This document shows positions 35,624 through 38,498 of a stretch of DNA of 42,696 nt, piece after piece. The stretch covers positions 529,818 to 572,513 of the forward strand of contig CP181398.1 in assembly GCA_047946875.1 (NCBI GenBank), written 5' to 3'. A program made the position numbers and the translations under genes. Source of the stretch: Candidatus Kerfeldbacteria bacterium (GTDB taxonomy: Bacteria > Patescibacteriota > Patescibacteriia > UBA10025 > JAHIVO01). The stretch's first letter is position 1; every line of letters starts with the position of its first letter. A model generated the notes under the pieces. The model had not been told where the DNA came from. It did not search any database and saw only the letters and a program-made list of their open reading frames with translations.

Positions 35624-36829
35624 TTAATAAATTCTATCAATTTGTCCATTTAATTTTTCAGTTTTTGCTTTGAAATCTTTTCTCACTCTTCCAAAACAAA
35701 ATCCTAATTGTTCATAAATTTCTACTTGTTTTAGATCTACATATCTTTGTTTAATGGCCTCAGCTATATCCATATAGTTAATTTTATTATTTTTATATCC
35801 GCTAACTGTTACGCCATCAATCCCCTCTATTAATAAATATACAGCAGATGCTCCAGCCTCCATACCAAAATTAACATCATAAGAAGAGGTAAACCCACAT
35901 CTTACCAAATGACTTGGTCTAATACTTCTAATCTCGGGTAGTGCGTATTGACCATCAATATACATACCTTGATCAATCATAAATTTATTTATCTCTTTAT
36001 CATCTTTTAACAATTTTTTTAATTCTTGGGCAACATACTCACCTGCCCCTGCTAATTTTTTGTGGCCAAATGCATCTTTTACAGATGACTCATCGTACAA
36101 CTCTTCTCCACTTACATCTTTAATCCCTTCTGAAACCACAATAGTATAAGTACCGGCATTAACATCACTTTCCTGAACTCTTTTTGTATATACTTTTTTT
36201 ATATGCCTATATAATTCTTTAAAATCTACTGGTATTTCTGGTATTAATATTGCATCAGCCTCACCAGATACACCACCTCGAAAAGCGGTATGACCAGCAT
36301 TTCTTCCAAAAATCTCTAATACCATAATTCTATTATGCGTTTGTCCTGTTGTTTTTAGATCTCTTGAAAAATCTGCAATTCTTTCAATAACAGAATCTCC
36401 CCCTACAGAATATGGCATTAGATCCAAGTCCATAGTTTTAGGCACATGGACACATTTGATTCCATTTTTACTTAGGTCCAAAACAACACTACCAGTATCA
36501 TCACCACCACTAATAACTAAAGCGTCAAGTTTAAATTTTTTTAGACCTCGTTTAATTTTGTCATACTTCTCCTCATCATCTATCTTTGAAATCTTTACGC
36601 GTGAATGTCCTGCTTCTGAACCAGCCACATTAATACTAAATGTGTCCAATCGCTTATCTGTTAATTCAGTCAATGAATCTAAATCTTCTAAATTATAAAG
36701 TCCTGCGTAACCGTTTGGGATCACAAAAGTTTTTATTCTACTTCGAATAGCCATTTTAGCCACCCCCTTAACAACAGCATTCAATCCGCCACAATCTCCG
36801 CCACTGGTGATTATGCCAATATTTTTCAT
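35624..36829 (-). CDS. pfk: 6-phosphofructokinase with PPi-type signature residues
   Basis: GIITSGGDCGGLNA, ISGGDDTGS and VPKTMDLD. Asp and Lys occupy the positions equivalent to E. coli PfkA G104 and G124. Confidence 0.88.
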   Translation of the reverse strand: MKNIGIITSGGDCGGLNAVVKGVAKMAIRSRIKTFVIPNGYAGLYNLEDLDSLTELTDKRLDTFSINVAGSEAGHSRVKISKIDDEEKYDKIKRGLKKFKLDALVISGGDDTGSVVLDLSKNGIKCVHVPKTMDLDLMPYSVGGDSVIERIADFSRDLKTTGQTHNRIMVLEIFGRNAGHTAFRGGVSGEADAILIPEIPVDFKELYRHIKKVYTKRVQESDVNAGTYTIVVSEGIKDVSGEELYDESSVKDAFGHKKLAGAGEYVAQELKKLLKDDKEINKFMIDQGMYIDGQYALPEIRSIRPSHLVRCGFTSSYDVNFGMEAGASAVYLLIEGIDGVTVSGYKNNKINYMDIAEAIKQRYVDLKQVEIYEQLGFCFGRVRKDFKAKTEKLNGQIDRIY

Positions 36830-36877
36830 GATTACTTTCTTAAATAATTAAATTTCATTTTCAGTTCTGCCGGACCT

Positions 36878-36931
36878 GTCGTAAACCACTAAAGGGTTCA
36901 CGACACCCTATTTCCTTCAGTGATATAGGGT
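36878..36931 (-). other. 54-nt double-hairpin insertion in the T-stem of the outer tRNA copy
   Basis: In RNA sense ACCCUAU-13nt-AUAGGGU (7 bp) is followed by GUCGUGAACC-7nt-GGUUUACGAC (10 bp including one G-U). It is absent from the intact copy. Confidence 0.8.
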
Positions 36932-36951
36932 GGATTCGAACCAGGATACTC

Positions 36952-36992
36952 GGCTTCCTCGCCAGAGGCGAGTCCGCCTATGGCGGAAAAGG
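36952..36992. repeat. 41-bp perfect direct repeat, left copy (tRNA nt 30-40 plus the 30-nt insertion)
   Basis: ggcttcctcgccagaggcgagtccgcctatggcggaaaagg is identical to 37365-37405. It contains the 30-nt insertion (36958-36987), made of two GC hairpins: UCCGCC-AUA-GGCGGA and CUCGCC-UCU-GGCGAG. Confidence 0.95.
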
Positions 36993-37015
36993 TTTTCATT
37001 TGTTCACTTTCAGTT

Positions 37016-37086
37016 CTGCCGGACCTGGATTCGAACCAGGATACTCGGCTTCAAAGGCCGATGTCCTACCATTAGACGATCCGGCA
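37016..37086 (-). tRNA. tRNA-Gln (anticodon UUG), intact, no encoded CCA
   Basis: Hand-folded cloverleaf: acceptor UGCCGGA/UCCGGCA (U1-A72, discriminator G, as in E. coli tRNA-Gln), D arm GUCU-AAUGGUA-GGAC, anticodon arm UCGGC-CUUUGAA-GCCGA, 4-nt variable loop, and T arm CCUGG-UUCGAAU-CCAGG. Confidence 0.93.
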
Positions 37087-37103
37087 GAGCTAAAAACGAT
37101 TAT

Positions 37104-37346
37104 TTATTTTAACTTTTTATCCAACCACTTCCTACCTTGTCCCGACTTTAAAAAACTTTCGCGAATGTAAGATTCTTTTTTATTTTTATATACTTCTGTA
37201 TAAATTAATTTCCATGGTTGATGCCCTCTTGTAAATTTACTTTTATTACTATTATGTTCCTCTATTCTTATATTAGCATCTTTTAGTGTGACTCCAATAT
37301 ACCTCATTCCATCTTTCTGACTTTTTAATATATAAACTGTATACAT
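37104..37346 (-). CDS. small GIY-YIG nuclease-family protein (80 aa) embedded in the tRNA-Gln locus
   Basis: MYTVYILKSQKDGMRYIGVT..RIEEHN..PWKLIY..RESFLKSGQGRKWL gives GIY/YIG, a conserved Arg and a Glu in canonical order. The stop lies 17 nt upstream of the intact tRNA. Confidence 0.8.
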   Translation of the reverse strand: MYTVYILKSQKDGMRYIGVTLKDANIRIEEHNSNKSKFTRGHQPWKLIYTEVYKNKKESYIRESFLKSGQGRKWLDKKLK

Positions 37347-37364
37347 ACATGATTATAAATTAAT

Positions 37365-37405
37365 GGCTTCCTCGCCAGAGGCGAGTCCGCCTATGGCGGA
37401 AAAGG
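37365..37405. repeat. 41-bp perfect direct repeat, right copy
   Basis: Identical (41/41) to 36952-36992. It includes the second copy of the 30-nt insertion (37371-37400). Confidence 0.95.
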
Positions 37406-37421
37406 CCGATGTCCTACCATT

Positions 37422-37442
37422 TTTTAATCCGCCTCTGGAGGA
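37422..37442 (-). other. 21-nt insertion in the D-loop of the outer tRNA copy
   Basis: In RNA sense UCCUCCAGAGGCGGAUUAAAA. It forms an imperfect UCCUCC-AGA-GGCGGA hairpin. Its CCAGAGGCG is the exact complement of CGCCUCUGG in the 30-nt insertion. Confidence 0.8.
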
Positions 37443-37559
37443 AGACGATCCGGCAGAGCTAAAAACGATAATTTGTATTACTATAAAAATGCCTAAATAC
37501 TGAATAAGAGAAGGTTATTAATATATTTTAATCAAAATTACGATAATGTCAACTATAAA

Positions 37560-38498
37560 TTATACGCGTAAATATCTTCCAATAGCTATACTAGAACTAA
37601 TTATGTTTAATACTATTACAAATGCTAATTGCCAAGCAATAATCTGTATTAAATTAGTATTAAAATAACTAATTATATCTAAATTATAACCTTCAAAAAA
37701 AATATTAACTTGTGGAGTAATTACACTAAGCAAAGGATACAATAAAGCTAAAGTTATTGCGACTGACAATACAGCATATAACATACTCTCTACCAAAAAT
37801 GGTGCTCGAACAAACCAATTAGTAGCTCCAACTAGTTTCATAATTCCAATTTCTTCACGGTGTGTGTAAATGTTAATACGAATAGTATTAAATACTATCA
37901 ATATTGCAATAATTATAAATACTATACTAACTATAATACCGATTCGTTCTAGCTGATTTGAAAGTTCTGACAATCTATTGATAACAGATTCATTGTTATC
38001 AAAATTTCTATCGCTGATTATTGCAGTATAATCAGGATTTTCTAATACTGTTAAAATATTTGGATAATCATCAATAGTATTAGCTTTAATAACTAACGTT
38101 GCACTTAATGGATTTTCATCAAGCTCATTAATAGATTCCAAAATTATTTCATCATCTTTATGTTTTTCCTTAAAATTATCCAACGCAACCGATTTAGAAA
38201 TATAATTAACTTCTTTAACCTCTGATAAACTTTCTAATCGATACTGTACATTAATAATATCCTCTTCTAAGGCATCAGGTTTAAAATATACTGAAACGTC
38301 AACTTTTTCTTTTACCGAATCAATAGCTTTCTCTGCTACAAAATTAATACCAGCAACCATAGTCACTGAAAAAATCATTAATATCAAAATAATTATAGTT
38401 ACAATTGATAACCAAATATTTCTAATAAATCCTTGTAATGCAAATTTGATTGTCCTAGTAAAAAATACAAACATAATATTATAATATATACTTCCCAT
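37560..38498 (-). CDS. ftsX: cell-division ABC transporter permease-like protein FtsX
   Basis: TM1, a large extracytoplasmic loop and three C-terminal TM helices. It lies immediately downstream of ftsE. An internal ATG at 38474 (MFVFFTRTIKFALQG) may be the real start. Confidence 0.85.
   Translation of the reverse strand: MGSIYYNIMFVFFTRTIKFALQGFIRNIWLSIVTIIILILMIFSVTMVAGINFVAEKAIDSVKEKVDVSVYFKPDALEEDIINVQYRLESLSEVKEVNYISKSVALDNFKEKHKDDEIILESINELDENPLSATLVIKANTIDDYPNILTVLENPDYTAIISDRNFDNNESVINRLSELSNQLERIGIIVSIVFIIIAILIVFNTIRINIYTHREEIGIMKLVGATNWFVRAPFLVESMLYAVLSVAITLALLYPLLSVITPQVNIFFEGYNLDIISYFNTNLIQIIAWQLAFVIVLNIISSSIAIGRYLRV

Follow-up and report, generated by a model that had tools for sequence, protein, structure and literature searches.

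A GIY-YIG gene, a double-hairpin module and a spare tRNA-Gln gene inside a split tRNA-Gln gene of Candidatus Kerfeldbacteria: a probable selfish cassette of tRNA genes

How can a tRNA gene be broken in two and enclose, between its halves, both a nuclease gene and a whole copy of itself? This question is raised by a tRNA-Gln locus on the minus strand of a 42,696-nt stretch of Candidatus Kerfeldbacteria CP181398.1 (hereafter the window, whose positions serve as coordinates for the locus). The locus carries an open reading frame (ORF) for a small GIY-YIG protein, a conserved double hairpin named M here, and intact as well as interrupted copies of tRNA-Gln. It is probably one of a large family of selfish nuclease-plus-hairpin cassettes that reside in tRNA genes and that spread and rearrange by nuclease-triggered recombination.

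The nested arrangement reported in the first-pass annotation of this DNA, with its coordinates, sequence identities and perfect 41-bp repeat, was confirmed throughout. Read along the minus strand, the outer tRNA-Gln starts with positions 1-13 (acceptor stem and 5' side of the D stem; 37443..37455), with the same sequence as the inner tRNA. The D loop then holds M2, an insert of 21 nt (37422..37442) made of an imperfect hairpin, TCCTCC-aga-GGCGGA, and TTAAAA. Outer positions 14-34 (37401..37421) end after anticodon base 2, and between anticodon bases 2 and 3 lies the upstream copy of M, a 30-nt GC-rich double hairpin (37371..37400; TCCGCC-ata-GGCGGA, CTCGCC-tct-GGCGAG). After M the tRNA continues with GAAGCC (positions 35-40; 37365..37370), where tRNA homology stops. 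Next come an 18-nt spacer, an 80-aa stand-alone GIY-YIG ORF of Slx1/UPF0213 type (37104..37346; Pfam PF01541) with the C-terminal sequence FLKSGQGRKWL, a 17-nt spacer, an intact tRNA-Gln(UUG) (37016..37086) and a 23-nt spacer. The outer gene then resumes with the second copy of the 41-bp direct repeat (36952..36992), which begins CCTTT and contains the downstream M (36958-36987). The first copy (37365..37405) consists of 5 tRNA bases, M and 6 tRNA bases; the two copies are 100% identical and have a spacing of 413. Outer positions 35-61, from anticodon base 3 to the T arm (36931..36957), match the inner tRNA at 27/27 bases. They are followed by a 54-nt AT-richer double-hairpin insert in the T arm (36877..36930) and by the last ten bases of the gene, the 3' acceptor strand (36867..36876), after which come the duplicated downstream flank and, 37 nt on, the start of pfk. 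The extents of the outer pieces had been given correctly before; the D-loop and T-arm inserts had not been listed separately.

Every tRNA-derived base in the outer pieces equals that of the inner copy. The flanks are duplicated as well, over about 24 nt upstream and about 14 nt downstream (repeats of 38 and 25 nt, 92% and 96% identical, respectively). ARAGORN and Rfam (RF00005, 66.3 bits) called only the inner tRNA at the locus, and this gene is presumably the functional one. The nested layout can equally be described as an intact gene with a hairpin-disrupted partial copy on either side: since the 5' and the 3' partial copies both carry M, the ORF and the intact gene look nested in a split gene. 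The earlier description of a GIY-YIG cassette that leaves a broken tRNA copy, with an intact copy beside the ORF, is supported. Because an independent metagenome contig of 1,971 nt from the Joint Genome Institute (JGI) covers all four junctions at 100% identity, the locus is not an assembly chimera, a concern that had been raised. An NCBI contig of a metagenome-assembled genome (MAG) agrees as far as it reaches, breaking off within a repeat at window position 36931, and the same ORF protein is encoded on these two other assemblies.

The 30-nt insertion had been seen as part of the repeat; that it is a conserved double hairpin travelling with the ORF had been missed. Sequence comparison identifies M as the key conserved cis element that accompanies the ORF. 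In the window it consists of two adjacent hairpins, each with a 6-bp stem and a 3-nt loop, and its DNA fold has an energy of -12.4 kcal/mol (z -4.75). The pairing test began from the bare core only: 192 of 279 GCCNNNGGC cores had outer bases complementary at 3/3 positions, against 1.6% by chance, and 14 different outer triplets occurred among these cores, while control cores gave 0-16%. A covariation count on modules preselected by pairing was circular and was dropped for this core-only test. Moreover, the paired M copies within loci L032, L035 and L068 (loci are given L numbers) differ by compensatory changes. At the sequence level, these comparisons demonstrate that the hairpin is under selection as a structure. 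Stem mismatches showed no RNA-type wobble bias (T:G 10 versus C:A 9), and the test of strand was uninformative. The first loop is A-rich and the second T/C-rich; as the loops are roughly complementary, M looks alike on both DNA strands, a symmetry that mildly favours a role at the DNA level.

The placement of M is also constrained. In dozens of unrelated loci its distance upstream of the ATG is mostly 10-25 nt, and a tRNA continuation of 4-12 nt after M is the rule in the other loci. M2, one hairpin plus YTRAARA and 21-22 nt long, recurs at many loci, inserted into the D loop of a tRNA-Gln or tRNA-Asn fragment and always in one orientation (14 versus 0); it is present in L006 (2736-2757) and absent in the close relative L100. 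Neither hairpin motif was found outside the locus in the 42.7-kb window, nor in shuffles, and M is therefore not a genome-wide repetitive extragenic palindrome (REP) in the window. A snap-back or P-nucleotide origin of the hairpins was ruled out by the GCC/GGC core, which is invariant across phyla, and a fixed spacing between cleavage and insertion, as in I-TevI, was dropped since M lies about 12 to 56 nt from the tRNA end, depending on the clade. The 54-nt T-arm insert, whose DNA fold has an energy of -11.7 kcal/mol (z -4.25), is a double hairpin unlike M, and relatives hold different inserts at that place (L004).

The ORF matches the Pfam GIY-YIG profile over positions 1-71 of 78 (E 1e-13). 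The catalytic Tyr, Tyr, Arg, His and Glu which, with the domain, characterize the GIY-YIG superfamily are present as Y5, Y16, R27, H31 and E63 and are invariant in 26 homologues. No second Pfam domain was detected in the 80 aa, the whole protein being the catalytic domain. In profile searches against the PDB, the UPF0213 proteins 1zg2 and 1ywl (E ~2e-9) came before SLX1, and no I-TevI, Seg or UvrC match was obtained at E<=1. The AlphaFold2 (AF2) model had a pLDDT (predicted local distance difference test) score of 96; its best Foldseek match was again 1zg2, followed by the Slx1 structures 6seh, 7cq2 and 4xm5, the Slx1 matches having template modelling (TM) scores of 0.66-0.68, while I-TevI appeared only at E 0.26. 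By profile and predicted fold, the protein is a minimal stand-alone domain of the Slx1/UPF0213 branch and not a homing enzyme of the I-TevI/Seg type, whose structural definition calls for a DNA-binding domain (NUMOD, zinc finger or helix-turn-helix) that the protein lacks. Known homing enzymes read long sites through such a module. Of the homing-type reading in the first-pass annotation, the cassette thus stands and the classical homing endonuclease does not. The subfamily has a C-terminal motif of its own, FLKSGxGRKWL; NCBIfam and PHROGs gave no meaningful family for the ORF. Homologues in the initial search came from Patescibacteria, and the protein family comprises 15,632 clusters at 50% identity (E<=1e-3). 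Minimal bacterial Slx1-like proteins are regarded as mostly vertically inherited and repair-related, and it is from the UvrC/I-TevI lineage that the known selfish GIY-YIG enzymes arose (PMC1564403).

In order to see how general this architecture is, one genome per species was scanned with the ORF alignment, which gave 80 loci, 63 of them with a clean full-length ORF. The counts that follow are lower bounds: 14 contigs end <=350 nt from the ORF, and tRNAs containing introns are missed. Some ARAGORN calls within arrays, such as the second 'tRNA-Val' of L029 and the first 'tRNA-Lys' of L060, use M as a tRNA arm and were not counted as intact. A same-strand tRNA lies within 40 nt of the ORF in at least 37 of the 63 loci, mostly directly downstream and sometimes overlapping the stop codon. 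A GC hairpin is found <=60 nt upstream of the ATG in at least 48 of the 63, and 41 of these are double hairpins. The tRNAs beside the ORFs are Asn, Gln, Ser, Lys, Met, Val, Pro, Tyr and Cys (the last in L008). Hosts are mostly Patescibacteria, with Omnitrophota, Ignavibacteria, Margulisiibacteriota, Verrucomicrobia and Bacteroidota also represented.

The common order is a partial tRNA copy, M at a clade-specific point in a loop or at a stem edge, 4-12 tRNA bases, an AT-rich spacer and the ATG, and the design ends with an intact tRNA beyond the ORF. A mirror form, with intact tRNA, ORF, short tRNA piece, M and tRNA 3' end, occurs in L008, L109, L098 and L052. Most loci have one partial copy only, either 5' or 3'. 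The insertion sites of M include the Gln anticodon loop (ggccttt|M|gaagc), the Asn anticodon stem (gcagtt|M|gRctgt), D loops (tagct|M| and cagtt|M|gg), the Ser D loop and anticodon loop, and the T loop (ggttc|M|gaWtcc). The geometry of the window returns in L047, a locus of an unrelated lineage with another insertion site, where a perfect 41-nt repeat (GTTC+M+GAATCCC; 1448-1488 and 1847-1887, spacing 399) encloses the ORF and a tRNA-Gln(CUG) at the T loop. L032, L035 and L068 are nested with M on both sides, their 33-51-nt repeats being 88-91% identical, and L013 also resembles the nested form. The search of related genomes proposed earlier thus found the layout both at the ftsX locus and at other tRNAs, with filled and empty sites.

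Two side observations concern the neighbouring tRNAs. In eight tRNA-Asn loci (L028, L037, L039, L046, L059, L066, L075, L078) the last codons and the stop of the ORF lie about 10 nt inside the tRNA 5' end; RNase P processing would therefore strip the stop codon from the mRNA. In L009, from Moranbacteria, the tRNA directly downstream of the family ORF (2779-2992) is interrupted in the anticodon loop by a group I intron (RF00028, 49.4 bits, E 2e-11), on account of which ARAGORN missed this tRNA, and a second GIY-YIG ORF, of 99 aa, lies 2 kb away.

At the ftsX locus itself, homologues of the ORF follow ftsE-ftsX in L004/L005, L006, L007 and L013, each time with a tRNA-Gln 5' fragment bearing similar inserts, the ORF, an intact tRNA-Gln and 3' remnants. 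The ORF products are 70, 62, 63 and 48% identical to that of the window, respectively, with FtsX at 71, 71, 65 and 36% and FtsE at 88, 83, 84 and 55%. As the divergence of the ORF parallels that of these host proteins, the ORF has been at the ftsX locus for a long time, and in the window it looks long resident rather than freshly arrived. In L006 and L007, older fragment layers persist whose acceptor stem is different. The suggestion that the locus could be a single trapped repair intermediate does not agree with an architecture conserved in genomes whose FtsX proteins are 36-71% identical. Most ftsX relatives have a plain tRNA-Gln with neither ORF nor hairpins. Downstream of ftsX in L100, L103 and L104, hairpin-interrupted tRNA-Gln fragments are present and no GIY-YIG ORF occurs in the available sequence. 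The closest relative of the ORF (81% identity), in L003 (2890-3274), has the same M2- and M-bearing tRNA-Gln fragment upstream; it follows dnaX, not ftsX, and the contig stops 19 nt past it.

Comparison of filled and empty sites gave indications of mobility. L109 (filled) and L106 (empty) differ by exactly 21 nt, the ORF, cggttc, M and a duplicated 19-nt tRNA 3' end, the downstream flank ATTAAT being kept. L006 (filled) and L100 have near-identical ftsX ends, promoter and outer fragment, with flanks about 95% identical as judged by eye; L100 is without the block of fragment, M and ORF and without the 21-nt M2. The ORF clades track the local target motif, and D-loop sites of the form 'cagtt|gg' in tRNA-Val and tRNA-Pro fall inside the clade of the Asn site 'gcagtt|g', a pattern that implies moves from one tRNA to another with a similar short motif. 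One MAG has two copies, at tRNA-Gln and tRNA-Asn (L031, L078). Several ORFs are degenerate, being frameshifted, truncated or interrupted by nonsense codons. Presence/absence polymorphism together with degenerate copies is the behaviour by which homing and free-standing selfish nuclease elements are recognized, and both were found here. In L031, L038 and L087 (ORFs at ~1501-1745), in-frame TGA codons stand at conserved Gly/Trp positions; these may reflect a reassigned UGA in the hosts rather than pseudogenes.

Tandem arrays are present in L063, L067, L087, L072 and L104. The array of L063 (1855-2530), on a polished contig of 1.3 Mb, has seven units of M plus tRNA-Asn 29-74 with a period of 103 nt, placed after an intact tRNA-Asn, and the neighbouring ORF is N-terminally truncated. 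On an Ignavibacteriales chromosome, L067 (1419-2720) has four units of tRNA-Ser 1-21, M, tRNA-Ser 22-30 and a 108-aa ORF with a period of 326 nt, preceding an intact tRNA-Ser; a separate array of four hairpin pairs with a period of 101 lies upstream (78-410). Repeated units of tRNA-Gln 22-35, M and tRNA-Gln 36-72 occur in L104 (3560-3814).

What the comparisons demonstrate is the architecture and its recurrence, the presence/absence differences between relatives, the selection on the hairpin structure and the protein fold. The ORF and M form a unit that is invariably surrounded by duplicated tRNA sequence, with one tRNA copy left intact. Taken together, these features suggest the following working of the cassette, in which the cleavage activity, its target and the recombination route are inferred. 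The cassette is made of the gene for the nuclease of about 80 aa, of M within a partial tRNA copy, and of a complete, co-oriented tRNA across the ORF, probably co-transcribed from the tRNA promoter. The nuclease would break DNA at or beside the tRNA/M site, and repair by homologous recombination would use tRNA sequence as homology arms. When a naive tRNA is cut, its left end could pair with the 5' partial copy of the donor and its right end with the donor's 3' part, and what lies between would be copied in; by such two-ended copying the nested form would be reproduced and the outer pieces would match the local tRNA. Three outcomes may be expected: the cassette is copied into naive tRNA alleles in a homing-like manner; partial copies are duplicated or deleted, giving arrays, nested layers and precise loss (as in L100); and copies are homogenized. 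Only arrangements that keep one intact tRNA would survive. Since M always lies between the target half-sites, it could either disable the site in the dead copy or be itself the branched structure for an Slx1-like enzyme.

Several points weigh against this reading. Cleavage by the nuclease and its target are deduced from sequence, and the 80-aa domain is without the DNA-binding module of known homing enzymes. The intact tRNA beside the ORF carries the same site that M interrupts, so that simple cutting of naive sites leaves self-immunity unexplained. Filled and empty pairs could mean loss by repeat-mediated deletion instead of gain; the correlation of clades with motifs is also expected if specificity resides in co-inherited homology arms; the arrays hold partial, not intact, tRNAs and are one-sided; and the divergence of the ORF in parallel with FtsX fits long vertical residence, which would suit a host function. 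A structure-guided version of the mechanism can be proposed, to which we would give rather little credence at present. M and the flanking tRNA duplexes would form a four-way junction, arising by pairing of an M strand with the naive allele or by cruciform extrusion of M, and an Slx1-like nuclease would recognize it by shape. Cutting would bias the copying of M, the ORF and the spare tRNA into the naive allele, with target specificity coming from the tRNA homology arms carried by the cassette and not from protein-DNA sequence readout. Such a system would amount to a gene drive that is guided by structure and addressed by homology, with the smallest known nuclease domain as its motor; it would also show a new way for the 'repair' branch of GIY-YIG proteins to turn selfish.

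The opposite of a selfish cassette would be a domesticated host function, in which a mini Slx1-like nuclease and the hairpins form a vertically inherited device for the maintenance or regulation of highly transcribed tRNA loci, for instance by handling stalled forks, R-loops or hairpins or by controlling expression of the tRNA or the ORF, with the fragments as by-products. The parallel divergence of ORF, FtsX and FtsE, the strict conservation of the catalytic residues and the compensatory changes that keep the hairpins would all agree with it, as would the maintenance of rDNA repeats by eukaryotic Slx1 and the mostly vertical, repair-related character of the bacterial branch (PMC1564403). We nevertheless consider it unlikely, given the patchy occurrence among equally close relatives, most ftsX-tRNA-Gln loci being plain, the difference in presence between the close relatives L006 and L100, the several copies at different tRNAs in one genome, the degenerate ORFs and the target switches between tRNAs with a common short motif. 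Somewhat less probable still is that autonomous palindromes, similar to REP elements or miniature inverted-repeat transposable elements (MITEs), insert in tRNA-like DNA and are duplicated by slippage or unequal crossing-over, the ORF being innocent and, for example, exploiting the tRNA promoter. Hairpin-bearing tRNA fragments do occur without the ORF in L100, L103, L104 and the array of L063, and mitochondrial double-hairpin elements and GC-rich palindromes beside tRNA genes are known without a dedicated nuclease (PMC2800124). These ORF-less cases can however be explained by loss of the ORF or by action in trans, and the tightly constrained distance between M and the ATG in dozens of loci, the restriction of M to the locus within the 42.7-kb window and the joint presence of ORF and M in the L109/L106 difference all tie the hairpin to the gene.

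A system working on RNA, in which a tRNA-cleaving RNase is held by fragment and M transcripts acting as pseudo-substrate or antitoxin in the style of type III toxin-antitoxin systems, is very improbable. Repeat arrays directly upstream of a small nuclease gene and the position of M in tRNA loops recall such systems, and a TrmH fusion once hinted at an RNA link for bacterial Slx1-like proteins (PMC1564403). Against this, duplication and presence/absence would still require a mechanism at the DNA level, the stem mismatches lack an RNA-specific wobble bias (T:G 10 versus C:A 9), and the mutually complementary loops of M make the DNA strands alike. Characterized GIY-YIG enzymes, moreover, work on DNA. 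Scarcely credible is a functional interrupted outer tRNA-Gln from which the inserts, the ORF and the inner tRNA would be removed as introns or by processing of the split-tRNA type. Its tRNA-derived bases are all intact and identical to the inner copy, yet none of the ribozyme or intron models matches the locus, anticodon, D loop and T arm are all disrupted by the inserts, and the fragment of L006 differs from the intact gene in the anticodon stem; in most loci a single partial copy does not allow a full outer gene to be rebuilt, and an intact copy stands beside the ORF. An equally slim chance is left to a one-off trapped repair intermediate or a chimeric assembly of two alleles. Perfect repeats are a typical source of misassembly and one MAG contig ends inside the locus, but the independent contig spans all junctions at 100% identity and the architecture is found in many species and at other tRNAs, including the twin of L047 with its 41-nt perfect repeat.

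Known classes of insertion were also excluded, as the first-pass annotation had proposed. A group I intron was ruled out by an Rfam search at E<=5 on window positions 36700-37650, which found the intact tRNA only, the L009 intron serving as positive control (49.4 bits). An integrase-type tRNA island, which would carry a tyrosine or serine recombinase gene, was ruled out by the single 80-aa ORF between the repeats and by the neighbours, ftsX and pfk; nor is the locus an insertion sequence (IS) element. For IS200/IS605 or REP-associated tyrosine transposase (RAYT) systems, hairpins are indeed present, but the sole protein is GIY-YIG, and a six-frame motif scan and the ORF list gave no HUH candidate.

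Among known systems, the cassette recalls free-standing homing endonucleases in its behaviour, most of all SegB of phages T4 and T6, islands that target tRNA genes in its outcome, and mitochondrial double-hairpin elements in its hairpins. SegB is a free-standing GIY-YIG homing endonuclease in a tRNA cluster that cuts tRNA gene DNA, and in T6 the unit of tRNA and segB, bounded by short homology, undergoes tandem amplification that depends on SegB and on recombination, an experimental precedent for the proposed route (PMC2330249; PMC13096335). In both cases a GIY-YIG gene stands beside tRNA genes, the nuclease and the adjacent tRNA are inherited or amplified together, and the repeats of tRNA plus segB recall the 413-bp unit of the window and the arrays of L063 and L067. 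However, SegB is a member of the I-TevI/Seg branch, far larger and equipped with a DNA-binding part, while the window protein is an 80-aa Slx1/UPF0213 domain without a PHROGs match; SegB loci have neither a conserved double-hairpin module nor hairpin-interrupted tRNA fragments; and SegB is found in phages, the present family in bacterial chromosomes. UPF0213 proteins (1zg2, 1ywl) and Slx1 are the best matches in sequence and structure and are likewise minimal domains without an auxiliary domain, but the present subfamily is linked with tRNA genes and hairpin modules and shows presence/absence polymorphism.

The double-hairpin elements of Allomyces and the GC-rich palindromes of Neurospora are short, conserved and apparently mobile hairpins that are kept in transcripts and in some cases lie by tRNA genes (PMC2800124). 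They are organellar, dispersed in intergenic regions and rRNA, and neither associated with a dedicated adjacent nuclease gene nor placed inside tRNA gene copies. M, in contrast, is locus-specific in the window and coupled to one ORF family, and the likeness is in form only. Integrative elements that target tRNA genes also combine insertion with a duplicated tRNA segment that keeps the gene intact, as in the 19-nt 3' duplication of L109/L106; the present cassette differs in its size of about 0.4 kb, in having no integrase, in duplicating the 5' end, the 3' end or the middle of the gene, and in the dead copy, which is interrupted by hairpins. Group I introns with homing endonucleases likewise interrupt a bacterial tRNA gene in its anticodon loop and come with a nuclease ORF, but the window locus has no ribozyme, and function is kept by a spare DNA copy instead of RNA splicing. 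In the so-called fractured genes, split-intein genes are reportedly parted by a free-standing endonuclease gene and the halves rejoined by protein trans-splicing. There too a host gene is in two parts with a free-standing nuclease gene between them; in the window, both halves look dead and the locus comes with a complete substitute for the gene.

The literature yielded these analogues and no account of a bacterial GIY-YIG gene combined with a double hairpin and tRNA fragments, although coverage of subscription journals was thin and absence is no proof. We rate the cassette as a distinctive cis module with an unexpected nuclease lineage, within a known kind of element, selfish nuclease cassettes. 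If the reading as a selfish cassette is correct, the element would be very common, with thousands of protein clusters, mostly in Patescibacteria (the Candidate Phyla Radiation, or CPR) but also in Omnitrophota, Ignavibacteria, Bacteroidota and others, and would shape the tRNA loci of small genomes, in which tRNAs are often single-copy. It would extend selfish behaviour to the Slx1/UPF0213 branch, thought to be vertically inherited repair machinery, and the spare gene would be a third route to harmless insertion in an essential RNA gene, besides RNA splicing and the restoration of the 3' end by integrases. It would also account for annotation trouble at such loci, namely tRNA fragments, false tRNA calls with hairpin arms and contig breaks beside the ORFs. 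The question would then be how an 80-aa domain chooses its site, and whether a DNA double hairpin may serve as a device for specificity or immunity.

The surroundings of the locus consist of a macB-like gene, ftsE and ftsX upstream and of pfk and fba downstream. Directly after the ftsX stop, a promoter-like sequence on the minus strand (37525..37552; TTGACA, 16 nt, TAAAAT) has 11/12 consensus matches and is separated by 69 nt from position 1 of the outer tRNA-Gln. TTGACA stands at the same place after ftsX in relatives too, and the site is probably the original promoter of tRNA-Gln, now heading the whole locus. No minus-strand terminator was found at the locus, and with the promoter-like site upstream, co-transcription with pfk-fba is plausible. 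The window is ~30% GC. Over its whole length (1-42696), nearly all genes and gene-like ORFs of >=70 aa lie on the minus strand and the GC skew is negative throughout, a bias that is consistent with a single replichore of a small genome.

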